A DNA stretch of 63,616 nucleotides, the filler included. It is 9 parts of 9 records of this genome, joined end to end, with 100 filler letters (N's around TTAATTAATTAA, not from the genome) between each part and the next. Parts side by side here need not be neighbours in the genome. Positions count along the whole stretch, not along the records: positions 34,369 to 44,066 come from SRR31147125_38539; 8 more parts are not named here. One strand, written 5' to 3'. Below, piece after piece: positions 7,082 through 57,420 of the stretch (position 1 is its first letter; each line of letters begins with the position of its first letter). The notes under the pieces are model-generated. The model saw only the letters and a program-made list of their open reading frames with translations, searched no databases and was not told where the DNA came from. Both the position numbers and the translations under genes were made by a program.

Positions 7082-7181
7082 NNNNNNNNNNNNNNNNNNN
7101 NNNNNNNNNNNNNNNNNNNNNNNNNTTAATTAATTAANNNNNNNNNNNNNNNNNNNNNNNNNNNNNNNNNNNNNNNNNNNN
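7082..7181. other. Artificial contig spacer
   Basis: N44-TTAATTAATTAA-N44, with stop codons in all six frames. Confidence 0.99.
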
Positions 7182-15393: not shown

Positions 15394-15493
15394 NNNNNNN
15401 NNNNNNNNNNNNNNNNNNNNNNNNNNNNNNNNNNNNNTTAATTAATTAANNNNNNNNNNNNNNNNNNNNNNNNNNNNNNNNNNNNNNNNNNNN
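15394..15493. other. Artificial contig spacer
   Basis: N44-TTAATTAATTAA-N44. Confidence 0.99.
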
Positions 15494-21076: not shown

Positions 21077-21176
21077 NNNNNNNNNNNNNNNNNNNNNNNN
21101 NNNNNNNNNNNNNNNNNNNNTTAATTAATTAANNNNNNNNNNNNNNNNNNNNNNNNNNNNNNNNNNNNNNNNNNNN
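21077..21176. other. Artificial contig spacer
   Basis: N44-TTAATTAATTAA-N44. Confidence 0.99.
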
Positions 21177-27213: not shown

Positions 27214-27313
27214 NNNNNNNNNNNNNNNNNNNNNNNNNNNNNNNNNNNNNNNNNNNNTTAATTAATTAANNNNNNNNNNNNNNNNNNNNNNNNNNNNNNN
27301 NNNNNNNNNNNNN
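27214..27313. other. Artificial contig spacer
   Basis: N44-TTAATTAATTAA-N44. Confidence 0.99.
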
Positions 27314-28779: not shown

Positions 28780-31700
28780 GTGAGTATTAAAGCAATCAAA
28801 ATAGGAATTATCCTTTGGATAGCTTTCCTGGTTGCGCTCTCCGGTTCTGCCTTTGCCGAGAGAAAAGTCTTTATCAACAATGAGTGGGTCAGTGTTGACA
28901 AGCTAAGACAAAACTCGGAAGAAGATTATGAATCTTATATGGAGCGTGGTTGTACACCAGGAGAATACAAAGTACTAATCACACAAGCGGAATACATACC
29001 GCCTGTTCAGGTTTTTGCCAGAGTAGTTCATTGCAATCCAAATGGAGTATGGGAGGTTGTAACGGGATTGACTGAACAAAATTTCCGGCTTCATGAAGGT
29101 ATCGGACACCTTGATAATGGAACATGTAACGCTTCCGGCAAGAAATCTGTAGTTGATTATGTAGTTGTAGAAAATCTAAGCGAATGGAACTCAGCTTCCA
29201 TTTCACTTGGTATTGACATTTCAGGTTCCATGTCGGGGGGAGCTTTGGAGGAAGCCAAAACCAAACTTAAAGAATTCCTCAACAACGTATCCCCTGCCGA
29301 TAGGATCGGATTGGTATCATTTGAATCAACAGCAAAAATAGAACATGATTTTTCATTTGATACAGCAAGTCTCACCAGTGCAGTTGATGCTCTCACAACA
29401 ATGGGCAGCACAGCTCTTCTTGATGCTATTTGCCTGTCACTTGATGAAGTAGTATCTCAAAATGGAGCAAAGGCCGTAGTCGTTTTTACGGATGGACAGG
29501 AAAATCAATCTCAAAATTGTACAACGGTACAGCAGGTTATAGACAAAGCAAAATCCTATTTTATACCTGTATATACAATTGGTGTAGGTAGCGGTACTGA
29601 TTCCAATTATCTACAAACAATTGCTGACGCAACAAACGGCAAATTTTACAATGCTCCTTCTGCCAGTGATCTGGCAGCTATTTACGACGAAATCACTCAC
29701 CTGATTCAGTCACAATATGTAATAAACTACAGATCGCCATTCCCTGAAAGTTCAGGAATTGACAGATGTGGCGATGTGCAGGTCATTCTTCCGGGAGGAA
29801 CTCAGATAGATCCTGCGGCATATAGTTACACAATCAGCGGAACTGACTCCATATCATTATCTTTATCGACAGAAACAAGATCATTGATTTACAGTGGTTC
29901 CGGTAATGATATCCCAATGCCCATTTCAGTTGAAGTTGTATCTCCAAACGAATCAGTCGAAGGATTTCTGTACTGGAGACCTGCCAATGGAGATTTCGAG
30001 AAAATCCCATTACAGATAAACGCAAGGGGAACAAGTTCGGGTTTATATAAAGCTACAATCGCTAAAGAAAATGTGATTGAGCCTGGAATCGCTTTCTTTG
30101 TAGAATTCATCGGTGATTCGACTGGTACAAGGGTAACTCTTCCAACAGTTGGTCCTCAAACAAACCCATACACAATTGCAATTAGCCCAAACGCTCCTCC
30201 TGTAATTAGCACCAATTCTTTCCCAGCTAATTTTGATTCTTCACAGGATCTCAAGATCAAATTCAGAGTTTTTGATGAAACGGATGAAACAACTGAAGCC
30301 AATGTATATACAAGAAAAGTTCGAGTAGGCGGTCATTCATTCCCGTTTAATAAAATAGCAGCCACAAGAACTTCCGGTTCTGCACAAAGCGGAAATTGGG
30401 AAGCGACCATTCCTGTTAAAGATTTAGGTGGACTTGGTATTGAAGTCTTTATTACAGCAACCGACAATTTTGGAATCAAAGGCTATTATGCGACAATGGA
30501 TTATCCAAGGCGCATTCTGCCCAAGGAAACTGTAAAAGATCCTGGTGATGGATTCACTTTACCATACACCATGGGACCATTCTATTTAACAGGTACGGAT
30601 TCAACCAGTATTAGCCCAGCCAGTCGAGACGAGACTGTTTACAAGTACAAAATATCTGGTGGATTACATATTAACCTTCTTGGTAATTGGGCATATTTTG
30701 AGGCTGATAATTGCACTATCGACTTGCAATTCCCTCCAGTTATGCTTGAATGCGATTCTTCTGTATTAACATTCAATGAAGAAGTTGTACTTTTCCAGGA
30801 TAAAAGCATAAGTTCATTGCCGGTTGATCCTGCAATCTTTTCCAGTAATGGAGAAATCAGACACGCAAGTGATTCAGGCACTATAGATAACGATTTACTT
30901 GATGCATTTCAAGCTCAGCTAGGTGCCAATCTTGAACTGTTTGGACTGGCTTATGCAAGAGTTGATAACTATGGATGCTTGCTATATGACACTTCCATAG
31001 AGAGCTTTTTCATTGGAAAACTTGCACAAATGTTCGACTTTAACATGGGGCTAACCAACAAATTCAGCGGAAAACCTCAAATTGGAGTCGGAGCTGTTGG
31101 AGTTTGCCCGAATATCGGAGTCAAACTGGTTGACGTAAAAGTCGGATTGAAGGTTTCAGTTTCAGACTGGATCAACCCAGTCGAAAAGGTATCTGGTGGT
31201 TTCAACTTCAATATTAAAACTTCCGATGCTCCAGACAGATGGAAAAAGAACTTGGGTTTCGGCGATCACGCACAAATGCTCACTGGTTCTTTGAAGGTAA
31301 ACCTTGGTTGTTCCTTGTTCTTTGCCGGTGCTAAAGAAAACTGCCAAATCGATAAAGTTTCACTCCCGATAAACAAAGCTTCACTTGGAGTGGATTTGCA
31401 TTGGCCTCTAGTCGGAATCAAAAACTGGGGATCATGTTTTGATATGGATATGGATGTCAGCGTCCAAAGCAGATTGCTGCTTGCTACCATTCCAATACCT
31501 CCTCCAGGATTTCCACTTAATCTCAGATTCAAACAAGCAAGCATTGAACTGGCTTCCGCAGGCAAGATGGCTGCTGGAATTGGTAAACTGCTTGGTGCAG
31601 ATAGTTGGAACGCCTGCCCTGCAAAAGATACCAGATTCACCGTCGGCATTGGTTTGTCGCTTGATCCGGCAGGTATTGACGTTGCGCAAAAGATTGGTCT

Positions 31701-34268
31701 TGGCTTAAAAGGAAGCCTCGACTTCTCCATTCTCAGAGCTGACTTCAACGGCTGGGCGGAATGGATTGATGGTCAGGTTGGCTGCCCACTTTGCTCAATG
31801 GGCGTGGATGGTCAAGCACAACTAATCTACGGAGATATCAGCTTGACTATTCCTCTGATAAAACTTCCAATCAGTGCAAAAGGATCGTTGCTGAAACTCT
31901 ACGGTGGGGTTGCCTGGAAGTGGGATTGGCCACAAGGCAACAAGTATCCACTGGCATTAACTCTTGAAGGTGTTACAGAAACCACAATGCCTGGCATTCC
32001 TGGCTTTGAATTATTCAAGGGTAAAAATTCAACAACTTTCAGTCTTAATACAACACCCTTTAAAATTGAAGCAATTTCCGGCGGTATCGTTCAGGCGATG
32101 ATTCCAGAGGCTGTTGGAAAAATTTTCCCTGGTTTAGGCGGCAAAGTACTAAGTAGCGCAAAATCTTATGGGAAAATCAAAATTGACGGTCAGGACAATG
32201 AATTCCTCGTGGTTGGTGGAAAAACAGTCCTGTTTGGAAAGCTTGATCTTGTCATGAAACTTCTAATCAACAAGGATGGAGTTGACTTCGAGTTTGTAGG
32301 TCTTGAAGACATTCCAACCCATGATGTCAATATAAACGCTCTTGTCAAAGGACGCTTGAGAGGAAAGCTCGCTGCTGTCGATCCTGAAACAGGTGAACAT
32401 ATCTTCCAGCTTCTAGGCAACGAAGATTCTATAGCTGTTTTCATAGGATGGGAAAACGAACAATCAGGATTTAAACTTGTAGATCCCGATGGAGCAGAGA
32501 TTTTTCCGGGTGAGAAAGTTGAGGATCTTCAAATTTCTATCGTAAACTGGACTGATGGCAAAGGTGCTTTTGCAGTAATTGGCCGACCTAAAGCCGGTAT
32601 TTACAAAATAGTACCTGATGATCCTCAAAACAGTCAGCTTCAAGTTGCTGTCAAGCTAGTAACCAAATCCGCAATGCTTAATGAAGTTACAAAACTTTCT
32701 GCAAGCGGTGGATCTGAAGGTGCTGTCGATCTCGAATGGGAGCTTAGCGATCTTGGTAAATCAATAGCTGAAGACAAACAAGCGACCCTTCATGTCTTCC
32801 TCGATACCGATAATCAGGGTGAGGATGGAACTTTGATAGGCAGTCTAAACGCCAAAGATGGTTCAGGAAACCTGACTCTCAAGGGATTCAGACCAGGTAA
32901 ATACTACTTCTACTCCCTGATGGTTACCGGCGAAGGCTTGCCAAGTGCAACGTATTCCAAAGATCCGCTGTCAGTCAGCTTCAGTGGCAGACCGGATAAG
33001 GTAGAAGATCTGGAAGTTGAAACCGCTGATAATGACACGGTTGATCTTCAATGGTCTTCGATTGGAGGAGTTAGCGGATATAGAGTTTATCTATCGGATT
33101 CAGCAGAGAAATCGATCAACACCAAACAGGTACCGATAATTCTCTATGGTAGCGACATAACCAAGTACAATTTCACAAAACTTGTACCTGGTGGAAAGTA
33201 TCTGGTTGCAGTAAGCGCATTTAACTCTCAGGGTGAAGGAGAATTGTCTGATGTAAAAGACTTTACTTATCTTGCATCAAACACAAACAACAATCCTTCC
33301 TTCGACTACGCCAAGAATCAGCTACCACTTGCGATTCCGGCCAAAAAACAGTTTAGCGCGCAACTAAAAGCAACAGATCCGGATCAGGATGAGGAAATCA
33401 GGTTCCAGATTGCAGAAGGACCTGACGCTATGTCAATAGAATCAAACACTGGAATAATCAACTGGACACCTAAATCAACAGACATCGGCCATCATAAGAT
33501 TGCATTCAGAGTCGTCGATGAAAGAGGTGGTTCCGATTATTACCAGTGGGAATTTGCCGTTACAAACGAATGGGCGTCTGACCAAGTAACTCTGGAAGAC
33601 CCAAATAAGCAGGAGGTAGACGTGGATATTTCCAAAGATGAAGGATGTAATTGTAATACAAGCCAGACAAACGGTTCAGTGGCATTTATGCTAATGTTAC
33701 TCGGTTTGTTGGGAGCTTTGCGCTACCGAAAGGTAAGACAAGCATTTAATCAAATGAAAAACACTTCATTAATTGGCATCTGTATTGTTCTTTCTTCGGC
33801 TTTCATTTTCGCTTCATGTGAAAGCAGTGGAGATGATTGCACTGTGGATACAGATTGTTCATCAGGACAAACCTGTGTTGATGGATCATGCTATGCCAGT
33901 TGTAAATCAAACAAGGATTGCGAAACAACAACTCCCGCATCTCGCCCCTATTCTCTCGGCTTTTACAAAGCGGAAGACGGCAGCACAGATGGAGACGATG
34001 GTCAAACAACCGAGGACGAAAAAGCAGCACCCGAAACAGAAGATGGTGATACTGCCGAAGCTGTTGACCCGGAAAAACTTGTTTGTCATCCGGCTTATCA
34101 GGCATGTAAACCGAAATGCGCCACAGATGAAGATTGCCCGAATGCCAAGTGTGATAGCGGATACTGCCTTGGAGAAAATCAGGTTCTTGATGGTGATATA
34201 GAAATCACGGAAAAAGAACAGGATGTTCCTCCAGCAGAATGCAATGAAGGTGACCGAAAGTGTGAAAA
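28780..34268 (+). CDS. Giant surface protein: signal peptide, vWA, Ig-like, beta-rich core, FN3, cadherin/He_PIG-like, MYXO-CTERM-like anchor, second lipoprotein signal, Cys-rich repeats; 3' truncated
   Basis: GAGGAG RBS and GTG start; MIDAS DISGSM...T...TDG; LQWS...GYRVY...YLVAVSAFN..GEG; LKATDPD...GIINWTP; GCNC-TM-RYRK; FASC; CxxDxDC repeats. Confidence 0.88.
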
Positions 34269-34368
34269 NNNNNNNNNNNNNNNNNNNNNNNNNNNNNNNN
34301 NNNNNNNNNNNNTTAATTAATTAANNNNNNNNNNNNNNNNNNNNNNNNNNNNNNNNNNNNNNNNNNNN
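34269..34368. other. Artificial contig spacer
   Basis: N44-TTAATTAATTAA-N44. Confidence 0.99.
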
Positions 34369-34405
34369 GACTCCAATATTTCCAGCCGGGGTTTTAATTT
34401 TTTAA

Positions 34406-36274
34406 TTATGCAGGCTTCTGACTAGCCATGCTTTCCATAGCGTCCTGAACTGCATATTTAATCTCGGATATACGCTCACGGTCGCTGCCTGTTTCAGCAG
34501 GATACTCGGGCTGACCTATCTTCATCGTTACCAGCGGCTTTTTGTGCCACATAGACACCGGCCACTTTGCTTCACGGAACGTGAACACCATCGGCACAAC
34601 AGGAACGTTTGACTTCACGGCAAGGTGAAAAGCTCCATTCTTGAAAGGACGTATATTGTCGTTCCACGGCCAGAGCGAAGCTTCGGGATAGAAATGAACT
34701 ATCCTTCCTTTCTTAAGCTCTTTTCGCATAGACTCCATAAAAGCATGCAGTGCCTTTGGCGACTCCGGAATCGGCACACCGCCAAGAAGCCTAACAAGCC
34801 TTCTTACAACAGGTATCTCGAAGTTTGATTTAAGCGTTGCAAAAAACGGCTTTCTTGGGAAAAGGGTGCACGCAACCATAGGCGAATCCAGAAAATGTAC
34901 ATGATTGGTTACCGTAACAGCGCCACCTTTTAAAAACCTCAGGTTCTTCTTTCCTCTTATTCTCAGACCGAAAAACAGATTTGAAACGATACTCAAAAGA
35001 GGAATAGCAATCACGTAAAACAGCAATGATGACCCTAGTCTAAAGAAAATATTCCTGTTGACAAAACGGTAGTTCTTGTCGACTTTGTAGTTGAACGGAG
35101 TGGGCATATGCACGATGTGTCTGTTTGGATCGTTAGCATCAGCTTCCCTGCGCTTCTGTTTTGCTATCACATTGCTGTAAACTTCCTCAATGCTGTCTAC
35201 CGATTTGTCAAGCGAATAGCCTTTAGCGCTTTCTATATACGCCTGCTTCATCTGCTCTTTTTCCTGCGGATGTTCTATCCAGTAGTCTATCTTTTTGGCA
35301 AGATCGTTATAGTCTTTGTTTTTAAACAAACTGCGCTCATCTAGAGCAAACTGTTTTGCTGCGCTCATTTTTGCATTTGCGATAACGGGAACGCATCCGC
35401 ATGCTATAGCTTCTATGCACACTATAGCTTCGATTTCTGCCTCAGCAGCATGGACGTACAAGTCGCACTGGTTATACAGCTTTGTTAATTGCTCTTTGTC
35501 TACATAGTCGAATATCGGCTTGTTCTTAACCTTCCTTCCAAGCCTTTCGTAATACTTTTGTTTTGGCCCTTTGCCTAGGAAAACGAGCTGTATCTTATCG
35601 CTGTATTTAGAGCGCATCGCTGCTTTAATTATAAGATCCTGCCTCTTTTCGGCAGCCAGCCGCCCTACCATCATTATTACAAACTTATCTTTATGCTCTC
35701 TTGGCTTTTCAATATCCATGGGTCTGAAAGCTTTATCTACTCCGTTTGATATAACATGCAGCTTTGAATTATAGTTGTGTTGCTTGAGCTGGTCCGCAAT
35801 AAACTTTGACGGGCAGTGTATATCTTCGATATGTCGGTAAAAACGCCGTTTAAACCAGAAGTACAGCATGTTTGTCAGCGGCTTTAGATACTTCATGCCT
35901 ATGTTGTAAGATATGTTTTCCGGCTGGCAGTGGAATGCAGCCATATAAGGTACGTTCATTTCTTTTGCTATCTGCCTTGTCCTCATACACAGCTTGTACG
36001 GAAGATAAAGATGGGCTATGTCTGCTCCTTCAAGCGCTTTTCGAATAACATCGTCGTCCGGCTTAGCAAACACCATGCCCTGTGCTGACACAAGCGGATC
36101 GAATATCCAAAGACTTCCGCTTGGTACAACAAACTTGTCCGGTGCTTCCTCCCCGGTAGACACTATTACAACTTGGTGTCCTCTCTCTCTTAAGGTATCA
36201 GCAAAACGGACAGCAGAAATAGTAGTACCATTGTTCTTGCTGTCGTACTGATCCAGTACCAGAGCTATTTTCAT
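34406..36274 (-). CDS. GT4 glycosyltransferase fused to a PlsC/LPLAT-family acyltransferase
   Basis: NGTTIS, VISNGVD, VGRLAAEKRQD, EIEAIVCIEA (E-X7-E); C-terminal NHVHFLD, FYPEA, PFKNGAF...VPVVP. Confidence 0.9.
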   Translation of the reverse strand: MKIALVLDQYDSKNNGTTISAVRFADTLRERGHQVVIVSTGEEAPDKFVVPSGSLWIFDPLVSAQGMVFAKPDDDVIRKALEGADIAHLYLPYKLCMRTRQIAKEMNVPYMAAFHCQPENISYNIGMKYLKPLTNMLYFWFKRRFYRHIEDIHCPSKFIADQLKQHNYNSKLHVISNGVDKAFRPMDIEKPREHKDKFVIMMVGRLAAEKRQDLIIKAAMRSKYSDKIQLVFLGKGPKQKYYERLGRKVKNKPIFDYVDKEQLTKLYNQCDLYVHAAEAEIEAIVCIEAIACGCVPVIANAKMSAAKQFALDERSLFKNKDYNDLAKKIDYWIEHPQEKEQMKQAYIESAKGYSLDKSVDSIEEVYSNVIAKQKRREADANDPNRHIVHMPTPFNYKVDKNYRFVNRNIFFRLGSSLLFYVIAIPLLSIVSNLFFGLRIRGKKNLRFLKGGAVTVTNHVHFLDSPMVACTLFPRKPFFATLKSNFEIPVVRRLVRLLGGVPIPESPKALHAFMESMRKELKKGRIVHFYPEASLWPWNDNIRPFKNGAFHLAVKSNVPVVPMVFTFREAKWPVSMWHKKPLVTMKIGQPEYPAETGSDRERISEIKYAVQDAMESMASQKPA

Positions 36275-36527
36275 TTTTAAGATTAATAAAGGCGGTTAAA
36301 AAAAATTATTATATGATAGCGGTAAGCCTTTATTAAAAGCCTCCTTTCATATTATATTAAATATATATATTACAGTACCTAAAATATACACCTTTCGGCA
36401 GATAAAATCAAATTTAGGGAGGTTGTAATCATTGCCGTGAAACTATGTCGGCTTCCATCAAAATGCGGCAATTATAAGACAGCCCAAATACGCTTTAGGC
36501 TGCTTTATAATTAACAACACTTTTTTA

Positions 36528-36788
36528 TTAGTTGTTCTCCTGCTTCTCCGCTTTCTTTATAAGCGACTTTTCAAGACGTTTCATCTTCATATTTTTGAAG
36601 GACATTCTGATTTTCTTCCAGAATACACCCACAGCTACACCGCCGGCAATTACCACACCGGCAACAATCTGCACAATATAGGAAGTAGCCGCCGGATCGA
36701 TATAAGCAAACGCCGTTGAAGAAAGTGCAAGCATCGTCAGCAGCACATATGCTGTAAAAATACCCGTGTTACGTAAAAATCTTTTCAT
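36528..36788 (-). CDS. Small membrane protein: signal peptide, YIDP, one TM, basic tail
   Basis: GGAGGG RBS; AFA cleavage site followed by YIDPAATSY, hydrophobic helix, WKKIR. Starts 14 nt after the reductase stop. Confidence 0.8.
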   Translation of the reverse strand: MKRFLRNTGIFTAYVLLTMLALSSTAFAYIDPAATSYIVQIVAGVVIAGGVAVGVFWKKIRMSFKNMKMKRLEKSLIKKAEKQENN

Positions 36789-36802
36789 CTTGTTCCCTCC
36801 GT

Positions 36803-37939
36803 CTATAATATATTGATCAATATTTTTTTAACTTCGCTCTTCTCCAGCATGACTGGATTGTTGTCCATTCTGCCGAGTGTAAAAGCGCCGTTTGTAATAC
36901 TTTCTAAATCGGCTTCCTTTATATCAAAAGCTGAAAGTCTAAGCTCTTGTATGTCTTTCGAAACGTCGAACAGCCATTTTTCAAATCCATTGATTCCGCC
37001 AAAAATATTTGTTATTTGAGATAGCTCAGGTACGACCTTTTGATTTATTCGCATCATGGACGATAGCGTAAGCGCCGCGGCAAACCCATGTTCAACATCG
37101 TGGTTCATGGTCAGCGGATACGAGATGCTGTGGCATGCGGTAGTTTTCGTCATAGAAAACGAAAGTCCTGCAAGCAATGACCCAAGACACATCTCTTCTC
37201 TTGCTTTTATGTCGCTTAGGTTTCCAAGTGCAGCAGGCAGTGCGCGCTTTATACGCTCTATAGAATCCTTTGCGAGCGCCTGTGAAAGCGGATTACGCTG
37301 CTTTGCCCAAAAGCCTTCCATAGCATGGCTGAGAGCGTCTAGTCCGGTGGCAAGCGTCAACCGTTTCGGCATGCTCAGTGTCAGCTCTGGCACGATGAGT
37401 GCATGTTTTGGATAGCATTTTGGATGTTCAACAGAAAGCTTTTTCTTGTTCTCGAAGTCCCATACCGTCGCCCATCTTGTTACTTCAGAGCCTGTGCCTG
37501 CAGTAGTCGGTACAGCAATTATATCTGACAGGAAATCTCCTTTGAAAAATGACTTCTCGCTGATAGCTTCCACAACTTGTTCATAGCTTACATCGTGCGT
37601 TTCGGCAATCCCCTGCAATGCACTAATAGCCTTTGCAAGGTCTATACTGCTGCCCCCGCCTATTGCGAGAATGAATTCGTATTTATCTTCGCTGCGAAGC
37701 ACGTTTATCTGCCTTTGTACATCATCAACTGACGGGTTTGGATTTACATCGCTTATAAGTCTATTTTGATTGCTGCTTATAAACCTGTCTATACTCACAC
37801 ATTCTTTCAGCCTCTTTAAAGCGCCTTCGCTTGCAACCACTAACGTTCGCTTGTCAGTAAGAGACGAAAACAAATCCTCCATTGTTTGCATAGAGCCAAA
37901 GCGTATATCAACTGGTGAAAACGGCTGGTATTGCATCAT
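36803..37939 (-). CDS. Iron-containing alcohol dehydrogenase, probable phosphonoacetaldehyde reductase (PhpC-like)
   Basis: GGGSSIDLAK, PTTAGTGSEVT, DALSHAME, HSISYP...HG; directly downstream of pepM. Confidence 0.85.
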   Translation of the reverse strand: MMQYQPFSPVDIRFGSMQTMEDLFSSLTDKRTLVVASEGALKRLKECVSIDRFISSNQNRLISDVNPNPSVDDVQRQINVLRSEDKYEFILAIGGGSSIDLAKAISALQGIAETHDVSYEQVVEAISEKSFFKGDFLSDIIAVPTTAGTGSEVTRWATVWDFENKKKLSVEHPKCYPKHALIVPELTLSMPKRLTLATGLDALSHAMEGFWAKQRNPLSQALAKDSIERIKRALPAALGNLSDIKAREEMCLGSLLAGLSFSMTKTTACHSISYPLTMNHDVEHGFAAALTLSSMMRINQKVVPELSQITNIFGGINGFEKWLFDVSKDIQELRLSAFDIKEADLESITNGAFTLGRMDNNPVMLEKSEVKKILINIL

Positions 37940-37948
37940 TAATTCTCC

Positions 37949-39241
37949 CTATTTGTCCGGTATCAGTGTCAATATCTGCTTGATCGGCATACAATTATCG
38001 CTGACTTCAAGCGACCTTCCGTTTGCAAGTATCTGCTCTGCCGTTCTCTGCATAGCCGGAAACATACTTCTTATAAGGTGATTGGCGTGTATTACTATGT
38101 TAACTCCGTGCTCAGCAAGCTCGCTTTCGGTAATGCAGTTATAAGTAGTCGGAACAACAACTATAGGAACACCCTTGTTGTTCTCCCTGAACCGTTTGCA
38201 GAACTCCAAGACTTCATCCGGCTTTTTACTGCGTGAGTGTATCATTATGCCGTCTGCACCTGCTTGTACATACGCTGTACAACGGCTTAGAGCATCATCA
38301 ATGCCTTTTTCGAGTATCAAACTCTCACAGCGTGCGATTATCATAAAGTCTTTTGTCTTCAGAGCGTTCTTACCGGCCTTTATTTTTTCGCAGAACTCTT
38401 CTATCCCCGCCTGTGTCTGGTTTACTTCAGTTCCGAACAGCGAGTTCTTCTTTAGTCCGTTCTTGTCTTCAATGATTATTGCTGAAACACCCATTCTCTC
38501 AAGTGTCCGAATATTAAATACAAAGTGTTCAACGAGTCCACCTGTGTCTCCGTCAAGTATTATAGGCTTAGTCGTAACGTCCATTATCTCTTCTATCGTG
38601 TGTATTCTTGACGTCATGTCTACTAGCTCTATATCCGGCTTACCCTTTACTGTGGAATCACAAAGACTAGATACCCACATAGCGTCAAACTCTTTAGTGC
38701 CTTTTGGAGTCTCAATCTTGGTCTTTTCGGCAATCAAGCCGCTAAGACCGCTGTGCGCTTCAATAACAGACAAACATGGCTTCATGGCAAGCAGTTTTTT
38801 TAATCTGCTGCGCCTGTTTTCCGGCATTGCAAGAACTTTATCAAGTCTTGTCATTATTGCTTCAGTTGGTGTCTGAGTATAAGGGAATTCTATTAGCTCT
38901 CCGTTCCACTGTTTCAGCTGTTCGATTATATTCTCACGTATCTCTGCCTGATAACCAGTCCTCCAGTTATCGCCGTGAACAACGATATCGGGCTTTAGCT
39001 CATCAAGTATATCGTAGTACTCCAAAGAATCCTGAACTACAACGTTCGAAACGCTGCTTATGCTGCTGAACATTTCAATTCGTTCCTGAAGAGGTATCAG
39101 AGGATATCGCTTATACGTTGCAATTACTTCATCTGTCAGTACACCCACAGTCAGTTCGCCAAGCTGCGCCGCTCTCTTTAAGATATTTAAATGTCCGCAG
39201 TGAATAATGTCCGTGCTGAAACACGCATATACACGTTTCAT
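37949..39241 (-). CDS. pepM: Phosphoenolpyruvate mutase with N-terminal cytidylyltransferase domain
   Basis: HCGH (HxGH) and VVHGDNW in the N-domain; DGDTGG and the EDKNGLKKNS PepM signature. Confidence 0.96.
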   Translation of the reverse strand: MKRVYACFSTDIIHCGHLNILKRAAQLGELTVGVLTDEVIATYKRYPLIPLQERIEMFSSISSVSNVVVQDSLEYYDILDELKPDIVVHGDNWRTGYQAEIRENIIEQLKQWNGELIEFPYTQTPTEAIMTRLDKVLAMPENRRSRLKKLLAMKPCLSVIEAHSGLSGLIAEKTKIETPKGTKEFDAMWVSSLCDSTVKGKPDIELVDMTSRIHTIEEIMDVTTKPIILDGDTGGLVEHFVFNIRTLERMGVSAIIIEDKNGLKKNSLFGTEVNQTQAGIEEFCEKIKAGKNALKTKDFMIIARCESLILEKGIDDALSRCTAYVQAGADGIMIHSRSKKPDEVLEFCKRFRENNKGVPIVVVPTTYNCITESELAEHGVNIVIHANHLIRSMFPAMQRTAEQILANGRSLEVSDNCMPIKQILTLIPDK

Positions 39242-39974
39242 ATTGATATCCTTTCTGATTCGACCAAATTCTTAAATCTGCTGGAAATCTCGGTCAAATC
39301 ATTTTCGTTATCTATTTCATTACAAAGCCTTTTCTTTAGTTCCATTGCTGTAATTAAAACCTTGTCTGTTATGTTGTTAAGTGCATTTTCAGCATAAACA
39401 TTTCGCTGTCCGCTGCTGCAAAGTCCGCTATTTCACCAAGCCACATAACCATATCTTCTTTGCATATATGATAAATTGGCTGGCAAGCAACACAGTCTTT
39501 TCCAAAATAATCTATGCCGACTTTTATTACTCTGTTTCCATTAAGCTTTGCCTTAAAATCTTTCTCGGGAAGCAGCAAACTCGAATCTATTGCAACGCAG
39601 CTTTCGTAGCTGTTTAGTAAGTCCCTGGCTACTGATGGTTCAAAAACTAAATCTCCGTGAAGCAAAAGTATATCGTCTTGCAGATAATCCTTAGCACATT
39701 CAATCGAATATATATAGTTCGTGCCGGCATAATCCGGATTAGCAACAAACTTAATGTCCATATCCATTTTCAAAGACTCAACGTATTCCTCCAGCTCATC
39801 TGCAAACGGACCAGTTGTTATCACAACTTCATTTATGCCTACTTTTTTAAGTACAAAAAGCTGCCAGCTTATTATAGTAAATCCAGCGCCGATTTCCGTC
39901 ATGCATTTTGGCTTATCTTTCGTAATGTATCCCATGCGTTTGCCTATGCCGGAGTTTAATATCAGTGCCTTCAT
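39238..39974 (-). CDS. LicC/PntC-like phosphonate/phosphocholine cytidylyltransferase, frameshifted at 39420-39422
   Basis: LILNSGIGKRM....PKC, NPDY..TNYIYS, LHGDLVF. Adding one T restores YAENALN...EIDNENDL and an ATGA overlap with pepM. Confidence 0.85.
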
Positions 39975-39976
39975 CG

Positions 39977-41109
39977 CTAATTCCTCTCGCTTAAGTATGC
40001 CATCAAAGCCTGTTTGTTCTCTTTAGGAGTAGTTGTGGGTCTTCCAAGGTCTTTCCTTGACCCCAGCGCTGCCTTTACCTCTATTAGCGCTGTTCCTGCC
40101 TTGGCTTTAGCTTCGTTTAAACATTGCTGCAAGCTTTCTTCGTCAGAAACCTGTCTGCAATAATCATACCCAAAGGTTTTCGCTATTGCGCTGTAGTCAG
40201 CCTTGCCCATAACAACAGGCATACCCCCCACCGACTCGTGTGCTTCATTGTTGAGCACGATGTGAATGAGATTACTGCATTTCTGCTGAGCTTCAACCAG
40301 TGCACTTCCAAGGTGCATCACCATTGCGCCGTCACCGTCAATACACCATACTCGAGTATTAGGTTTTTCAAGTGCTATTCCAAGTGCAATCATTGAAGAA
40401 TGCCCCATAGAACCGACTGTAAGAAAGTCGTGCGCATGACCTTTACCCTGGGCCTCACGTATCTCGAACAGCTCTCTCGATGCCTTGCCAGTTGTAGAGA
40501 CGAATACATCCTCTTCATCTGCATTCTCGGCTATAGTACGTATTGCGATTTCTCGGGTCATCGTATTCCCATTTTTATAATTGGCTTTATCATCAGCGCT
40601 TAGTGCGCCCTTTCTTATAACAAAAGCATAACTTTTGCCCAGTCTTGCGAGCTCAGAAGCTTTTTTAGAGACTCTTCTAGCTCTTCAACCTCCGTCTCCT
40701 TTGACACAACACAATATTCAATATTCATCATGTCAAGAATAGGAAGCGTAATTTCTCCCTGAAATACGTGCTGAGGCTCGTCTTTAATGCCCGGCTCTCC
40801 CCTCCATCCGATTACGAATATGCATGGTATGGCGTATACATCGCCGCTTAGAAGCGATGCTATGGGGTTGACGGCATTGCCTATTCCGCTGTTTTGCATA
40901 TATACCAATGCAGGTTTACCCGTTGCAAGGTAATGACCTGCCGCAAGGCCAACTGCTCCGCCTTCGTTGGCAGCCACGATATGCTCTCTGTCTACTCCGT
41001 ATTCAGCATACAGAAGGTTACATAGCGCCCCCAGCTGGGAGTCAGGAACGCCAAAGTACCGGCTGACGCCTATGCTTTGTATCCCGTTCAAGAAAGCTTT
41101 AACATCCAT
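39977..41109 (-). CDS. ppd: Phosphonopyruvate decarboxylase, one gene split by a frameshift at T6 run 40661-40666
   Basis: GVPDSQL, AANEG.AVGLAAG, YMQNSGIGNAVNP, DEPQH; then STTGKASRELF, VGSMGH, DGDG...NN..H.SVGG. Adding one A reads LKKASELARLGKSYAFVIRKGAL...MTRE. Confidence 0.93.
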
Positions 41110-41110
41110 A

Positions 41111-43192
41111 CTATTTTTCCTTATCCGTTAGTTTGTCGATTATGTACTGTCCGCCTACCTCTGCGCTTCTTCCGAAGTTTGCAATGTAGGTCTCTCTTAT
41201 CTGCGTTATTTTAGAGGCATATTTTTCACCATTTGCAAGCAGCTCCTCAATTGACGGACACAGCTTGTCCATATGAGCCGGGTCTACCTCTATTCCTATC
41301 TCTTTTCTAAGTACCATCTCAAGCGGCTTAGCCTCTATAACGTCGTACTCTGGATTATTTATCTTGGGCGGCGTGTTAATGAATATGACTGGCTTTTTAG
41401 TTACGAATGCCGCTTCATACGCTGTACCCGACCAGTCGCTGATAACTACATCAGAATTGAATATAGAGCTGCTGTCCGAAAAATCAAGCTCGAACGCAAG
41501 GTCTCCTCCTTCGTAACACCTGTATCGTTCAACTATAGCGTTCATCTTTGCGGCATAACGTTTAACATATTCGGGGTGAGGTCTTACAACAACCTGATAC
41601 CCTTTACCAAGAAGCTCGTCAAGAAGCTCGTGTATACAGCTGTCAAGGATATTCTCGTCCTGCCAGGACGGTGCAATTAGTATCTTTTTATTCTCTCTCG
41701 TCGTTTTTTCCATAGCATCATAACGTTCCTGCAGCTCTTCCAGCATGGAATATCCGCACAATACGAGGTCCTTTTCAGGCAGATCATAATACTGTTCCGT
41801 CTGGCGTATCTCATCAAACTGAAACTTCCCAACACAGAATATAGTGTTATAATGGTCAAGCGCACCTTTCCTTAGAACCATAGTCGTGCTGAGGGGATAA
41901 TGGAACATATAAACATACTCCATGCTCTTCTTGACCAGAGATCTTTTCAGATGGAACTGCTGTATGTCCGACATAGTCATTACGAACATATCTGCCTCTA
42001 TCTTCATGAACAACACAATAAGCCTGTTGTCGTCAATATAGTAAGGAATCAGCTGCGGATTATCAAAATCAAAAATCTGATCGTTCGGATCGCTCGTTAC
42101 GTAGTGTATGACTATATCTGAATTCTCCGTGATATATTCAATAACGCCCTTGAAGTACTTATAGAATCCGCTTTTTTCTGAATAAAACACAAGCTTCTTT
42201 ATGTTTTCTTCATCCAGAAACCTCTTGTAGTCTGCTTTAGCTTTTGCCTTTTGCTCCGCTGTCGGTTTGAGTTTCTTCTCAAGCTCCTTGCTGTTTGCCA
42301 ACGCTTCCTTGCTGTTCTCCAGCGCTTCATAATCTATATACTTTTTAGGCGGATACATTGCGTTCACGATAAGTACTATAAAGAGAGTGATAGTATTGCT
42401 GAGTATCCAGTATATGCCCACACCTGCCGGAACTATGAAAGCAAAATATAGAGAGAACAATGTCAGGAAAATAGCTATGCCCCATCGCCCGAACCAGCCT
42501 GCTTCACGCTGGAGTACATTAACTTTGTTCTGCACAGCCGAAAGCAGAAAAGCGCTTCCTCCGGAAAGAAGCGGTATAATAAGCAGACTGTTCCATTGCA
42601 CTAAGCTGGGTGTCTTTGAAAGATTAAAACCAAGAAAATTAAGGTCAAGCGCTTTGATTTTATCAATAGCCTCAGTTATGCCCGGAACGTTAATCTGAGA
42701 AAAGGCATGAGCATACGCAGGGTCGTTTACCATCTCTACAATCTTCATATGAGCGCCGGAACCTAGCTCGGTCGCTCCAAGCAGCTCCATTGCTTTTGCA
42801 GTCAAAGCGTCTATGATATCCGCGTTTATATGCAGCAAATGCTGAAGAGGGTTGTAAACCACTGCAATAAGTCCAAGTATTATAGGAATCTGAATGAGCA
42901 GTGGAATAGTACCTGCAAGCGGTCTGTACTTTTCCTGTTTATATAAAGCAAGCTGCTTCTCGCCTATCAAATCTCTGTTGCCCACACACGATGCAGCAAT
43001 CTCATTAAGCCTGGGTTTGAGCTTCACCATTTTTATAGAGTTCTTCTGCACCCAGATGTTTAGCGGAAACATCAAAGCTTTTGTAAACAGGGTGAACAGC
43101 AAAATAGCAACGCCGTAGTTTTTGACCAGTATATAGCACAGCCACATTATATAGCCGAGAGGTATTCCGATAACTGTATTAATAAAATCCAT
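41111..43192 (-). CDS. YidC/Oxa1 membrane domain fused to a CDP-glycerol glycerophosphotransferase (TagB/TagF)-like domain
   Basis: N-terminus YGVAILLFTLFTKALMFPL, LYKQEKYRPLAG.IPLLIQIPI, FLGFNL, PAGVGIYWILSN. C-terminus YMFH, ILIAPSW, VRPHP, SDVVISDWSG.AYE....KPVIF. Confidence 0.88.
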   Translation of the reverse strand: MDFINTVIGIPLGYIMWLCYILVKNYGVAILLFTLFTKALMFPLNIWVQKNSIKMVKLKPRLNEIAASCVGNRDLIGEKQLALYKQEKYRPLAGTIPLLIQIPIILGLIAVVYNPLQHLLHINADIIDALTAKAMELLGATELGSGAHMKIVEMVNDPAYAHAFSQINVPGITEAIDKIKALDLNFLGFNLSKTPSLVQWNSLLIIPLLSGGSAFLLSAVQNKVNVLQREAGWFGRWGIAIFLTLFSLYFAFIVPAGVGIYWILSNTITLFIVLIVNAMYPPKKYIDYEALENSKEALANSKELEKKLKPTAEQKAKAKADYKRFLDEENIKKLVFYSEKSGFYKYFKGVIEYITENSDIVIHYVTSDPNDQIFDFDNPQLIPYYIDDNRLIVLFMKIEADMFVMTMSDIQQFHLKRSLVKKSMEYVYMFHYPLSTTMVLRKGALDHYNTIFCVGKFQFDEIRQTEQYYDLPEKDLVLCGYSMLEELQERYDAMEKTTRENKKILIAPSWQDENILDSCIHELLDELLGKGYQVVVRPHPEYVKRYAAKMNAIVERYRCYEGGDLAFELDFSDSSSIFNSDVVISDWSGTAYEAAFVTKKPVIFINTPPKINNPEYDVIEAKPLEMVLRKEIGIEVDPAHMDKLCPSIEELLANGEKYASKITQIRETYIANFGRSAEVGGQYIIDKLTDKEK

Positions 43193-43268
43193 TTTTTCAC
43201 CTTAGAGTTTTAGTTCTTTTATCTGTTGTATAAACTGCTATAAGCAGCGTTTTAGCTCGTGCTGTAGA

Positions 43269-44066
43269 TTAATCCTCTGGAGGGCCTGTCATATTAAGGT
43301 CAAAGCCATATTCATTATTTAACACAGTCCTCAGAACGTTTGCTCCGCTAAGACCCGTAATGTCTCCCAGATCGTCCCTGCCTCCGGTATAAACTGCAAA
43401 GAAAGTATCGGTGGACTGCTCATAATTGGTTTCCGGTCCATCCCAAAGATATTTGTTTGCTTTAACGCCATGATCAGAAAGAACGAGGATCACAGCACTA
43501 GGATCATTTTCCACGATACCTTGCATGGTATATGTTATTCGTCCGCAAATATACTCGTACTGCTCTAAGAAATATTTTGAATCTGTCCAGTTCATCCTGT
43601 TTTCTTCATCTACCGGATTCCCATTTATGTCATAGATAAACGGTGCATGAGGGCAGCATATATAAGTGAACGTCATTGCGTTTTCATACTTATAACTCTC
43701 GGGAAGTGTATAGTAGGCAAGTATCTCGTCATACAACTCTTTGCCCGGCGGAATGACACCAATTGCATCAACAAGCGGTCTGAAAATCGTTCTGTCCATG
43801 ATGATATCAAGAGTAGAAGAGCCATCTTCTGTCGTATGGTATTTTTTGCCGGCATGATACTCCATTCGTGGTTCGAAGCCTACAAATCCCGAAACTTCTG
43901 TTTCATACAAGCTGTAACCCATATCTTTCATCAAACCGAAGAACTGCGCATTTCTAAACTGTTCTTCGCAGGCAAAAGCCCCATCCGTTTCATAACTGAA
44001 AACATAATCAAGATTAAATAGACCGGACAGAGTTTCCATCGTAAACTGTCTGTAGTTGGTACAGTC
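43269..44066 (-). CDS. Alkaline phosphatase superfamily (sulfatase-like/LtaS-like) protein, 5' truncated
   Basis: The frame is open to the contig edge; NYRQFTMETLSGLFN, PHAPF and ILVLSDHG motifs. Confidence 0.75.
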   Translation of the reverse strand, partial: DCTNYRQFTMETLSGLFNLDYVFSYETDGAFACEEQFRNAQFFGLMKDMGYSLYETEVSGFVGFEPRMEYHAGKKYHTTEDGSSTLDIIMDRTIFRPLVDAIGVIPPGKELYDEILAYYTLPESYKYENAMTFTYICCPHAPFIYDINGNPVDEENRMNWTDSKYFLEQYEYICGRITYTMQGIVENDPSAVILVLSDHGVKANKYLWDGPETNYEQSTDTFFAVYTGGRDDLGDITGLSGANVLRTVLNNEYGFDLNMTGPPED

Positions 44067-44166
44067 NNNNNNNNNNNNNNNNNNNNNNNNNNNNNNNNNN
44101 NNNNNNNNNNTTAATTAATTAANNNNNNNNNNNNNNNNNNNNNNNNNNNNNNNNNNNNNNNNNNNN
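44067..44166. other. Artificial contig spacer
   Basis: N44-TTAATTAATTAA-N44. Confidence 0.99.
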
Positions 44167-45597
44167 ACCTTTAATTTAGGAATATGGAATCAATTTAATA
44201 ACCCTGATCGTGTTTGGGCTAAGAATTTCCAAGGTATAGATCAGGCAAACCGATTCTTAAAGAATAAAGATAAAGTGACTCTAGAAGAAATTAAAGCTAA
44301 TAGTAATGATGGCGACTCAACTGCATATTACAAAGCATTGGATAATATGATATTGCTTGAGGGTGAAGCTTTGTTCTTAAAAGCATTCTTTTATATGGAG
44401 CTAACAAAAAGATATGGTGGAGTACCTATACTTGAAGAGCCTCTTGATTATTATGATGAATCTACATGGAAGAATGTTCAACGTAGTTCGCTGGATGATT
44501 GCATACAATACATTGTTACACTTTGTGATGAGGCAGCTGAGATTATACCTGACGATGTTCATTCTGTCTATTCCTGGTACGAAGACGGACGGGTAACAGG
44601 TGGTGCTATTAAAACGTTAAAAGCAAAAGCACTTCTTTTTGGAGCTAGTCCTTTATTTAAAAATGCAGGCTCTACAGTTACTTGGGCAGAGGCTGCCGAA
44701 GCTGCAAATGATGTAATTGCCACTGGTCAGTATAGTTTGAACTCAAATTATTCAGAATTATTCGGAGCAGGTAACCCTACCTTAGGTGAAGTAATTTTCA
44801 AACGCCGATATGGTTCAATGAATTCATTGGAGTTTGATCAATTTCCAATTGTTTTTGCTGGAAGTAATGGTGGAAGTATTACACCAACTCAAAATTTTGT
44901 TGATGAATTTGAGGTCGGTGATGGTAATTTTAGTGAAGAATTTGACTGGAATAATCCGGAACATGCCGCAGATCCATATGCCAACCGCGACAACCGGTTT
45001 TATGCAACAGTTGTTTACAACGGTTCAAATTTCTCTTCAACAACCATTGAAACGTTTACAGGAGGTAACAGTGGTTTGCCCAAAGAAAATGCTACAAAAA
45101 CCGGTTACTATCTTAATAAGTGGGTTAACCAGGGAATTGATTTGGTTAATGAGACTGAAGCCAATCATACTTGGCTGTATTTTCGTTATGCAGATGTGTT
45201 GTTAATGTATGCTGAATCTATGCTGAATGCATATGGTGCTGATGCTGATCCTGAAGGCTATGGAATGACTGCTGTTGAAGCATTTAATCTGGTTCGAAGT
45301 AGAGCAAGCATTAGTGAAATACAAGCTTCCGAGTTAACGATGGAACGCGTTGAACATGAGCGTCTTGTTGAGTTGGCTTTTGAAGGTAAGAGATACTGGG
45401 ATGTACGTCGCTGGCAAAAGGGTACAAGCTATTTTAATACACCGGTAAGCAGAATTGAAATTACCCAAAGTGGTGAAAACCTAAGCTATGAAGTAAAAGT
45501 ATTGGAGAATCGGGTTTTTATTGAAAAAATGAACTGGTATCCAATTCCTCAGGATGAAATTTCAAAAACAGGTTGGGATCAAAATCCCTCCTGGTAA
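44167..45597 (+). CDS. SusD/RagB nutrient-binding protein, 5' truncated
   Basis: GEALFLKAFFY.EL.KRYGGVP, RDNRF, FRYADVLLMYAE, ERLVELAFEGKRYWDVRRW, YPIPQ.EI...QNPSW. Confidence 0.93.
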   Translation, partial: TFNLGIWNQFNNPDRVWAKNFQGIDQANRFLKNKDKVTLEEIKANSNDGDSTAYYKALDNMILLEGEALFLKAFFYMELTKRYGGVPILEEPLDYYDESTWKNVQRSSLDDCIQYIVTLCDEAAEIIPDDVHSVYSWYEDGRVTGGAIKTLKAKALLFGASPLFKNAGSTVTWAEAAEAANDVIATGQYSLNSNYSELFGAGNPTLGEVIFKRRYGSMNSLEFDQFPIVFAGSNGGSITPTQNFVDEFEVGDGNFSEEFDWNNPEHAADPYANRDNRFYATVVYNGSNFSSTTIETFTGGNSGLPKENATKTGYYLNKWVNQGIDLVNETEANHTWLYFRYADVLLMYAESMLNAYGADADPEGYGMTAVEAFNLVRSRASISEIQASELTMERVEHERLVELAFEGKRYWDVRRWQKGTSYFNTPVSRIEITQSGENLSYEVKVLENRVFIEKMNWYPIPQDEISKTGWDQNPSW

Positions 45598-50968: not shown

Positions 50969-51068
50969 NNNNNNNNNNNNNNNNNNNNNNNNNNNNNNNN
51001 NNNNNNNNNNNNTTAATTAATTAANNNNNNNNNNNNNNNNNNNNNNNNNNNNNNNNNNNNNNNNNNNN
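50969..51068. other. Artificial contig spacer
   Basis: N44-TTAATTAATTAA-N44. Confidence 0.99.
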
Positions 51069-57320: not shown

Positions 57321-57420
57321 NNNNNNNNNNNNNNNNNNNNNNNNNNNNNNNNNNNNNNNNNNNNTTAATTAATTAANNNNNNNNNNNNNNNNNNNNNNNN
57401 NNNNNNNNNNNNNNNNNNNN
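57321..57420. other. Artificial contig spacer
   Basis: N44-TTAATTAATTAA-N44. Confidence 0.99.

Follow-up and report, generated by a model that had tools for sequence, protein, structure and literature searches.

What does a domain of the YidC membrane insertase family do when it is fused to a TagF-like transferase and encoded among the genes of a phosphonate pathway? We address this question for a Clostridia operon found in a stretch of DNA of 63,616 bases (the window, positions 1-63616), which consists of nine contigs joined by N44-TTAATTAATTAA-N44 spacers. Read along the minus strand, the operon carries seven genes, encoding a cut EptA/LtaS-like enzyme, a fusion of a YidC-like and a TagF-like domain, the phosphonopyruvate decarboxylase Ppd, a LicC/PntC-like nucleotidyltransferase, a cytidylyltransferase-like domain fused to phosphoenolpyruvate (PEP) mutase (CyTase-PepM), an iron-containing alcohol dehydrogenase (Fe-ADH) and a membrane protein of 86 amino acids (aa). 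The best explanation for this set of genes is a four-part machine which decorates the cell envelope and is fed by a plug-in donor cassette. We give a probability of about one half to the reading in which this machine acts as a relay, carrying a head group from the inside to the outside of the membrane via a lipid-linked intermediate, with the YidC-like domain as the conduit. An earlier note on this DNA had described a phosphonate operon of the cell envelope; its interpretation is partly supported by our analysis, as the enzyme identities, the folds and the genetic linkage stand but the phosphonate specificity of the module does not.

An operon built around a YidC-like and TagF-like fusion

The operon is confined to one contig of 9,698 bases (34369-44066), on which every gene lies on the minus strand. 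The open reading frames (ORFs) of the record are found at 43269-44039 (EptA/LtaS-like enzyme, open to the contig end at 44066), 41111-43192 (fusion), 40615-41109 and 39977-40561 (ppd), 39369-39974 (nucleotidyltransferase), 37949-39241 (CyTase-PepM), 36803-37939 (Fe-ADH) and 36528-36788 (86-aa protein). The gaps between genes are 76 nt (43193-43268), 1 nt (41110), 2 nt (39975-39976), 9 nt (37940-37948) and 14 nt (36789-36802), and the stop of the nucleotidyltransferase overlaps the start of CyTase-PepM in an ATGA at 39238-39241. The gene order and all of these spacings, as given in the earlier note, were borne out by the ORF calls and by reading of the sequence.

The first ~290 residues of the 693-aa fusion (42323-43192, minus strand) form a YidC-like membrane domain, which matches PF02096 over residues 26-277 (111.7 bits, cut-off 35), TIGR03592 (95.8 bits, cut-off 84.3) and solved YidC chains (1e-12 by phmmer, 2.5e-20 by profile). 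Hydrophobic segments near residues 28-46, 94-112, 202-220, 238-256 and 258-276 lie at the positions expected for the five core helices, with an insertion of ~80 residues separating helices 2 and 3, and by homology the C-terminus of the fusion is predicted to be cytoplasmic. In YidC structures the first core helix carries a positively charged groove residue. K38 of the fusion aligns with the R of FIVRGIMYPL in Escherichia coli YidC, and at this position 69 of 74 TagF-type fusions have K and 3 have R, while housekeeping YidC proteins have R in 7 of 10 cases; the sequence of the YidC-like domain is strongly conserved among the TagF-type fusions. Public annotation names the fusion merely as "membrane protein insertase YidC". 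In the genomes of relatives, a stand-alone, higher-scoring YidC was present in 5/5 genomes with a YidC-TagF fusion and in 5/5 genomes with a fusion of YidC to a sulfatase-like domain (YidC-Sulfatase, described below), and the YidC-like domain of the fusion is a specialised paralogue beside the housekeeping YidC.

The remainder of the fusion (~residues 320-693; 41111-42235, minus strand, including the stop codon) was identified as a TagF-like GT-B domain from predicted-structure matches. A structure model of the C-terminal 394 residues, built on 32 sequences, reached a pLDDT of 88.8 and has the GT-B fold. With this model the first ten Foldseek ranks were all TagF (7e-14), followed by the TagF-like capsule polymerase 8qoy (1.3e-11) and TarL, and VIA-align gave Z scores of 20.9 for TarL and 20.5 for TagF, which supports, at the level of the fold, the TagF-like domain originally proposed. 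The histidines H414, H431 and H539 are invariant or nearly so among the fusions. TagF has two catalytic histidines, and PDB titles name the variants H444N and H548A. In a short and weak hhalign alignment (E 0.011) the RPHPE...ITDWSG stretch of the fusion aligns with RMHP...VTDYSS of a canonical TagF-like protein, placing RPH(539)PE opposite RMHP. By modelled fold and family linkage the C-terminal domain appears to be TagF-like, rather than being a proven member of the family.

The gene upstream of the fusion (43269-44066, minus strand) is the 3' part, comprising the last 265 codons, of a membrane-anchored EptA/MCR-1/LtaS-like phosphotransferase, as judged by comparison with orthologues; the 5' part, which encodes the membrane region, is missing because the contig ends. 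The fragment is 75% identical to residues 239-501 of a 503-aa orthologue at locus L001. The model of this orthologue (pLDDT 91.8) consists of five long N-terminal helices and a globular domain, and its Foldseek matches were full-length MCR-1 (9nww, 3.6e-9) and EptA (5fgn, 3.0e-8), then EptC and PbgA, with LtaS lower. The enzyme had been described as LtaS-like, which holds in that it is of the LtaS/EptA type, but its fold is nearest to MCR-1/EptA. An iterative local hidden Markov model (HMM) links this subfamily with proteins near other fusions which do match PF00884; as this HMM drifted in its fourth round, pulling in fusion proteins via a fused member, we kept hits of <1e-50. A paralogue at L002 has a weak PF00884 match (E 0.003). 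Across 72 sequences of the family T247, H378, D436 and H437 are invariant and D206 is conserved in at least 90%, and the fragment in our operon retains the T, the H and the DH. In EptA and LtaS the corresponding residues are a threonine nucleophile and metal-binding Asp/Glu, His and Asp-His. By analogy, the residues of the outer enzyme would make up the pattern of a threonine-nucleophile phosphotransferase. At L003, L022 and L036 two to three tandem outer-enzyme paralogues of ~495-620 aa, none of them Pfam-positive, lie upstream of the fusion, which suggests several acceptors or subfunctionalisation.

The last gene of the operon (36528-36788, minus strand) encodes the 86-aa membrane protein, which has a leader ending in A-x-A, a YIDP motif, one transmembrane helix and a basic tail. 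It matched no Pfam or NCBIfam family, and the Atlas gives only "hypothetical protein" clusters of Bacillota. An alignment of 52 relatives shows a hydrophobic leader up to A-x-A, a near-invariant Y-I-D-P, a few residues, T/S-Y-x-I-Q, the helix and a W-R/K-K basic tail, although some copies apparently begin at YIDP, without a leader. The predicted shape is that of a single-pass protein which is processed by leader peptidase and has its N-terminus outside. Genes for signal peptidase I (S26) were found in 19 of 90 loci around the fusion, often adjoining it (L047, L060, L091, L092, L008 and 14 others). This is far above the chance expectation from a few copies per genome, with many of the loci being mutually related, and it suggests a dedicated peptidase for the small A-x-A/YIDP protein or for the outer enzyme. 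Rather than an appendix, this protein is a fourth, conserved member of the module. A predicted complex of the fusion with the mature small protein had a score of 0.02 and a mark of 0.34, which counts neither for nor against binding.

The four genes between the fusion and the small gene would supply the donor. The gene ppd (39977-41109, minus strand) was recognised by TIGR03297 on both of its ORFs, which match model positions 1-138 and 171-360 (184 and 244.5 bits); each half is under the cut-off of 312.5 because the record is frameshifted, and the intact orthologue at L001 reaches 453.2 bits. The LicC/PntC-like nucleotidyltransferase (39238-39974, minus strand) matches PF12804 (44.8 bits, cut-off 27) and PF00483 (31.3 bits). 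CyTase-PepM (37949-39241, minus strand) is a Fom1-type protein with PF01467 at residues 11-103 (59.5 bits, cut-off 21), where its translation has HCGH as the HxGH motif, and PF13714 at residues 147-405 (195.8 bits), and it exceeds the cut-off of TIGR02320 (420 bits against 319.55). The motif of PEP mutase is EDK-x5-NS, and the PepM translation contains the fitting EDKNGLKKNS. Since "pepM" encodes a cytidylyltransferase-like domain joined to PEP mutase, the operon carries two nucleotidyltransferase domains. The Fe-ADH (36803-37939, minus strand) matches PF00465 and PF25137, and its top NCBIfam match is the phosphonate Fe-ADH family TIGR03405, at 272.6 bits (273.1 for an orthologue) under an equivalog cut-off of 423.7. 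From its position beside PepM and Ppd, it is probably a phosphonoacetaldehyde reductase making 2-hydroxyethylphosphonate (HEP). The straightforward reading of these families is a putative route from PEP via phosphonopyruvate and phosphonoacetaldehyde to HEP, and on to cytidine monophosphate (CMP)-HEP. This agrees with the HEP route of the earlier note, through the family matches of PepM, Ppd and Fe-ADH, and with its CMP-phosphonate step, through the Fom1-type PF01467 domain on PepM and the LicC/PntC-type PF12804 gene. In the parts of Rice et al. 2019 consulted (PMC6697681), the cytidylyltransferase domain fused to PepM in Fom1 is stated to make CMP-HEP, and PF01467 and PF12804 are given as the commonest PepM partners, occurring together on 2.9% of PepM proteins. 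In the excerpted text of Li and Horsman 2022 (PMC8942020), surface pathways of the HEP type form a minority, at 8.5% of pepM neighbourhoods.

Two of these genes are interrupted in the record: ppd is split into two ORFs, one base being short in an A-run near 40660, and the nucleotidyltransferase ORF ends at 39369, 131 nt before the ATGA, one base being short near 39419-39422. Both frame breaks sit in short homopolymer runs and at each of them one added base restores the frame. We checked these positions in Logan contigs from three sequencing runs (X1, X2 and X3) from two studies; the X1 contigs are otherwise identical to the window, and those of X2 and X3, from another study, are ~95% alike. 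The extra base was present at 39419 in all three runs and at 40660 in X1 and X3 (2/3 runs; X2 had no contig there). Ppd is unbroken in the orthologues at L001, L005 and L015, at 377-379 aa, and their nucleotidyltransferase measures 243-245 aa. As independent read contigs carry the missing bases and the orthologues are intact, we conclude that both genes are whole in the organism and that the breaks are errors of the record, and the whole-gene models of the earlier note were right. Pseudogenes and programmed frameshifts were rejected because the read contigs from both studies carry the missing bases. Orthologous operons in other metagenome-assembled genomes (MAGs; L002 and L018) have broken ppd or Fe-ADH frames, which are probably assembly indels as in the record here.

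Fusions, neighbourhoods and donor cassettes in other genomes

Of 600 stretches from a pattern scan with one genome per species, at least 580 held a relative of the fusion, with carriers in Christensenellales, Lachnospiraceae, Oscillospiraceae, other Clostridia and a few oddly labelled MAGs. In a protein collection 4452 proteins matched at E <= 0.001, and most of the best 120 carried both PF02096 and PF04464. An even sample of the class had the fusion in 8 of 400 genomes, with a pepM cassette adjacent in 4 of these 8. The order fusion, ppd, nucleotidyltransferase, CyTase-PepM, Fe-ADH and small gene was repeated in L001, L005 and L015 among others, and because it recurs in other genomes we do not attribute it to chance.

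At least four fusion arrangements of the YidC-like, TagF-like and sulfatase-like parts were found across genomes. The first, seen in our operon, is a YidC-TagF fusion with a separate outer enzyme. In the second, a stand-alone TagF-like protein (413-444 aa) lies beside a YidC-Sulfatase fusion (844-926 aa), as in 4 of 5 loci examined; at L098 a cassette with Ppd, Fe-ADH and a triple fusion of nucleotidyltransferase, CyTase and PepM has such a pair on either side. Five genomes of 2.1-2.7 Mb (G075, G163, G190, G217 and G368; L096-L099 and L110-L119) have 3-5 YidC-Sulfatase genes each and one ordinary YidC, their YidC-Sulfatase open frames being 853-949 aa and often in tandem beside stand-alone TagF-like genes. 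The small protein was found in 0/5 loci with YidC-Sulfatase and a stand-alone TagF-like protein. The remaining arrangements join all three parts in one chain. Precomputed Pfam matches for 44 clusters of fusion relatives of 1214-1545 aa gave PF02096, PF04464 and PF00884 in 27 clusters, PF02096 and PF00884 in 11, and no PF00884 in 6. On rescanning 7 of the 44 clusters, we found YidC and sulfatase domains in 6 and PF04464 too in 5 of those, with one protein in the order Sulfatase-YidC-TagF and five in the order YidC-TagF-Sulfatase. The order Sulfatase-YidC-TagF is also that of the protein at L073 (1195 aa), which has only PF02096 and PF00884 by Pfam, its TagF-like part being found by tblastn. The seventh rescanned protein (P0159, 1347 aa) is a YidC-TagF-like fusion with BspA-type leucine-rich repeats and no sulfatase domain. 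The small protein is also drawn into such fusions, being joined to the N-terminus of a sulfatase-like protein at L077, and a small-protein match lies inside the sulfatase ORF at L092. All of these arrangements fit the topology expected from the families, in which YidC would have its N-terminus outside and its C-terminus inside, the TagF-like domain would be inside, and the outer enzyme would have its N-terminus inside and its catalytic domain outside. The repeated fusion of the YidC-like, TagF-like and outer parts is strong evidence that they act in one pathway and contact each other.

We also compared the neighbourhoods of the fusion in the best 80 loci, which are those most similar to the query, taking in as much as 10 kb to either side and calling ORFs simply as the longest frames; contig ends cut many of these loci short, which makes absences soft. 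Searches by tblastn with the proteins of the operon found PepM in 31/80 loci, Ppd in 30-31/80, the LicC-like nucleotidyltransferase in 38/80, Fe-ADH in 26/80 and the small protein in 57/80. Local profiles on the called ORFs of 77 loci recognised the sulfatase-like family in 55 and the small gene in 51, with 35 of the small genes directly downstream of the fusion. After adding five new loci from the even sample, PepM was present in 30 of 85 loci and another nucleotidyltransferase domain in 22 more. Fusion homologues are linked to pepM or to other nucleotidyl-donor genes, and the lack of any such association, which the earlier note had named as a refutation of its proposal, was not observed; its phosphonate operon, supported by the linkage to pepM in 30/85 loci, is nevertheless one form of a module which is not phosphonate-specific and in which the donor cassette varies.

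By local profile, an HEP-type cassette with Fe-ADH was present in 24 of the 31 PepM loci. Cassettes of the 2-aminoethylphosphonate (AEP) type, with a PF00266 (Aminotran_5) transaminase, were found in Roseburia inulinivorans (L055) and at L008, and the donor cassette at L047 is a LicC and choline-kinase fusion. Modules without pepM at L060 (14167-15984) and L042 (13721-15529) have fusions of ~600 aa between a PF12804/PF00483 nucleotidyltransferase and a class I/II aminotransferase fold, and L021 has a protein of PF01467 and an oxidoreductase in its cassette. The orthologues at L003, L022 and L036, which are 72-79% identical over the TagF-like domain, have no pepM or other cassette nearby, yet the small gene is still present, as are two to three genes of the sulfatase-like family. 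Because these orthologues keep the same parts while cassettes vary, the constant core is the fusion, the outer enzyme or enzymes and the small protein, and the phosphonate cassette is one of several interchangeable feeds. In 12 of the 31 PepM loci (L016, L017, L020, L024, L031, L035, L037-L041 and L098) the LicC-like nucleotidyltransferase, PF01467 and PepM form a single protein of 669-680 aa.

Downstream of the small gene, a terminator-like hairpin with a 10-pair stem (36479-36503, minus strand) follows after 25 nt and is likely the end of the operon, although the signal is weak, the contig having 9 such sites in total against 7.8 in shuffles. Beyond it lies a 622-aa fusion of a GT4 glycosyltransferase and a PlsC-type acyltransferase (34406-36274, minus strand; PF00534, PF13439 and PF01553), whose top NCBIfam matches are glycolipid synthases, all far under their cut-offs, and whose product might be an acylated glycolipid. 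It was rejected as a part of the module, as it follows the terminator-like hairpin and as relatives were found beside the fusion in 1/80 loci for the GT4 part and in 0/80 for the acyltransferase. The other contigs of the window are separated by spacers at 7082-7181, 15394-15493, 21077-21176, 27214-27313, 34269-34368, 44067-44166, 50969-51068 and 57321-57420, that is, sixteen runs of 44 Ns paired around the joining sequence. The preceding contig encodes a protein of >1,800 aa (28780-34266, plus strand), truncated where the contig stops, which has VWA, fibronectin-III and Ig-like domains, a transmembrane segment late in the chain and a tail rich in Cys. The contig following that of the operon encodes a SusD-family protein (44275-45597), and G+C varies from 0.36 to 0.61 along the window. 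Given this SusD-family gene next door and the range of G+C, the neighbouring contigs are uninformative on that of the operon, and the nine contigs are probably from different organisms within one metagenome bin.

A proposed relay through the membrane and its rivals

The relay that we favour would run as follows. PepM, Ppd and Fe-ADH would convert PEP to HEP, and the Fom1-type cytidylyltransferase domain, the LicC/PntC-like enzyme or both would make CMP-HEP. The cytoplasmic TagF-like domain would then use CMP-HEP to place hydroxyethylphosphonyl on a hydroxyl of a carrier, most likely a lipid, embedded in the membrane, and the attached YidC-like domain would pass the polar head through the bilayer via its hydrophilic groove. 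On the outside, the EptA/LtaS-like enzyme would load the group on its conserved threonine and pass it to the final acceptor, which could be a glycopolymer, a glycolipid or a protein. The small YIDP protein, probably trimmed by signal peptidase, would be a single-pass subunit of the outer enzyme. In other species, AEP, choline-phosphate or other cytidylyl donors would feed this core. EptA takes phosphoethanolamine from phosphatidylethanolamine (PE), and LtaS takes glycerophosphate from phosphatidylglycerol (PG). Neither an ABC transporter nor Wzx was found as an export gene in the operon by ORF and Pfam scans. Passage of the head through a YidC-like groove is plausible because purified E. coli YidC scrambles phospholipids in liposomes in vitro, as reported in the portion of a preprint consulted (bioRxiv 10.1101/2023.09.01.555937) and likewise stated in an excerpt of PMC11997395. 

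A number of observations weigh against the relay. Every transfer step in it is inferred, from folds, fusions and gene neighbourhoods. The TagF enzymes known so far do not load a carrier but lengthen polymers that are linked to a lipid. PF04464 exceeds its cut-off in relatives (30.7 bits for the orthologue at L005, which is 85% identical, and as much as 57-58 bits in others) but is not significant on the protein of this operon; with E relaxed to 1, Pfam gave only noise on its C-terminal domain and on outer enzymes of the type found here. Solved TagF was not reached by a profile of the C-terminal domain, phmmer and two profile searches against solved structures found nothing beyond YidC, and by VIA-align UDP-GlcNAc 2-epimerase is close behind TarL (Z 20.2 against 20.9). 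For the outer enzyme, the fragment has no PF00884 match, and neither it nor the 503-aa L001 orthologue has any Pfam or NCBIfam match. YidC-Sulfatase fusions have Asn, and no cation, at the groove position (10/10). In an unrooted tree of 41 YidC domains the TagF-linked and sulfatase-linked copies form two separate clades, each at 100/100, which lie with the housekeeping copies between them, an arrangement that does not make them sisters and that fits one recruitment of YidC as well as two. The relay does not account for the two nucleotidyltransferase domains of the cassette. The three orthologues without pepM described above belong here too, as do the 33 of 85 loci in which no nucleotidyltransferase gene lies in the stretch covered, many of these stretches being short.

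An unlikely alternative keeps the same enzymes and makes the YidC-like domain a dedicated insertase, chaperone or scaffold for its partners, namely the small protein and the multi-pass outer enzyme, rather than a conduit for the head group, with the lipid-linked donor crossing by an unlinked flippase or by general scrambling. The small protein resembles a classic, procoat-like YidC substrate, with an A-x-A leader, a short outer loop, one helix and a basic tail, and the apparently leaderless copies starting at YIDP, the signal peptidase genes in 19/90 loci and the groove cation kept as Lys in TagF-type fusions all fit an insertase, as would YidC-Sulfatase fusions if read as proteins with a built-in insertase. 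However, the commonest fusion partner is the TagF-like domain, which is soluble and cytoplasmic and needs no insertase. Loci with YidC-Sulfatase and a stand-alone TagF-like protein lack the small protein (0/5), and their YidC lacks the groove cation. A housekeeping YidC was moreover present in 10/10 of the genomes checked.

We consider it improbable that the TagF-like domain is instead a polymerase, building a teichoic-like chain of HEP on a lipid anchor which leaves by an unlinked exporter and is then ligated or trimmed by the outer enzyme. This would agree with the top fold matches being the polymerases TagF and TarL and TagF-like capsule polymerases, and with a cassette which yields the hydroxyl-bearing HEP and not AEP, Fe-ADH being present in 24/31 PepM loci. 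The same family, however, is found with donors which cannot be chained, namely AEP (L055 and L008) and the product of choline kinase and LicC (L047), the operon contains no ABC or Wzx exporter, and a chain with all three parts is a better fit to a relay than to a polymer dependent on a separate exporter. That the cassette makes a soluble natural product via a transient CMP-HEP, as for fosfomycin, and that the neighbourhood of the fusion is meaningless, is very improbable: although Fom1-type CyTase-PepM, Ppd and Fe-ADH are the early fosfomycin set in the sections of PMC6697681 consulted, Pfam and NCBIfam scans found no methyltransferase, epoxidase or ligases for tailoring in the operon, gaps of 1-14 nt and the ATGA overlap bind the cassette to the fusion and the small gene, and the cassette lies between these two in many genomes and also between pairs of TagF-like and YidC-Sulfatase proteins.

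Returning to the relay, its wider form would be that a branch of the YidC/Oxa1 family has turned from an insertase into a dedicated conduit and that, with a TagF-like loader and an EptA-like unloader and often in one polypeptide, it forms a previously unrecognised, modular through-membrane enzyme. Phosphonates, phosphocholine or related head groups would be the marks which this enzyme places on the surface of many Clostridia, gut Lachnospiraceae among them, and in HEP-type operons such as the present one its product might even be a polymer of phosphonate esters, analogous to teichoic acid but with C-P bonds; we put this forward tentatively. If true, it would be the first known instance in which a domain of the YidC family is physically coupled to enzymes for moving a small polar group, and it would give a physiological role to the lipid scrambling by YidC which has so far been shown in vitro. 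The operon family supplies concrete candidates for the transfer and export steps of phosphonates in Firmicutes. The natural single-chain forms of 1214-1545 aa suit cryo-EM and reconstitution, and carriers include the cultured gut commensals Roseburia inulinivorans and Waltera. Phosphonate and phosphocholine marks on gut commensals may bear on host recognition and on phosphorus cycling.

Comparison with known systems

Full-text literature searches, judged by titles and abstract openings, found no paper on a YidC-TagF-like or YidC-sulfatase fusion, in keeping with the remark in the earlier note that it knew of no characterised pathway with this architecture. The portions of PMC6697681 and PMC8942020 consulted do not contain "YidC", "TagF" or "glycerophosphotransferase", nor does that of PMC8942020 contain "PF04464"; the supplementary neighbourhood tables of these papers may list such neighbours. 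With the Pnt pathway (PntC) and with Fom1/Fom2/FomC, the operon has in common PepM, Ppd, Fe-ADH, the PF01467-PepM fusion, a PF12804 enzyme and a CMP-phosphonate (PMC6697681, as excerpted). Rice et al. term the steps following C-P bond formation enigmatic, and the part of their Discussion consulted names no transferase or export step, while the operon described here holds candidates for both.

The C-terminal domain of the fusion has its GT-B-like fold in common with TagF/TarL and the TagF-like capsule polymerases (PF04464), and a CDP-alcohol-type donor is plausible here too, CMP-HEP being a near-isostere. It differs in having ~15-17% identity and no sequence match to solved TagF, and in being fused to a YidC-like domain where TagF/TarL contact the membrane by an amphipathic region. 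Whereas TagF/TarL are linked to tagD/tarIJ, the fusion is linked to phosphonate, choline and other cassettes, with no TagGH exporter nearby. The fusion has the full five-helix core of YidC/Oxa1 and the cationic groove residue, as Lys, but it is a second copy in clades of its own, is fused to small-group-transfer enzymes, has the insertion of ~80 residues between helices 2 and 3 and has an enzyme domain in place of the basic ribosome-binding tail of YidC. The outer enzyme has the five-helix membrane domain, the outer domain with the alkaline-phosphatase fold and the Thr/His/Asp-His set in common with EptA/MCR-1/EptC and LtaS. In contrast to these, it belongs to a subfamily without a Pfam match, with 8-14% identity to solved structures and 1-4 tandem copies, and it is genetically and sometimes physically tied to TagF-like and YidC-like domains. 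This tie points to a donor of its own and not to bulk PE or PG.

A likeness in logic is seen with GtrA/GtrB/GtrC, CsbB/GtcA/YfhO and ArnC/ArnEF/ArnT, in which an inner transferase loads a lipid carrier, a small membrane protein acts as the flippase and an outer transferase follows. The proposed module would have these same three parts, with no protein family in common, and we rate it as a known logic (inner loader, membrane step and outer transferase) built from three families which are not known to have been seen together before. Those systems move a sugar, whereas the module described here would move a phosphonyl or phospho-alcohol head, with its parts often joined in one polypeptide.

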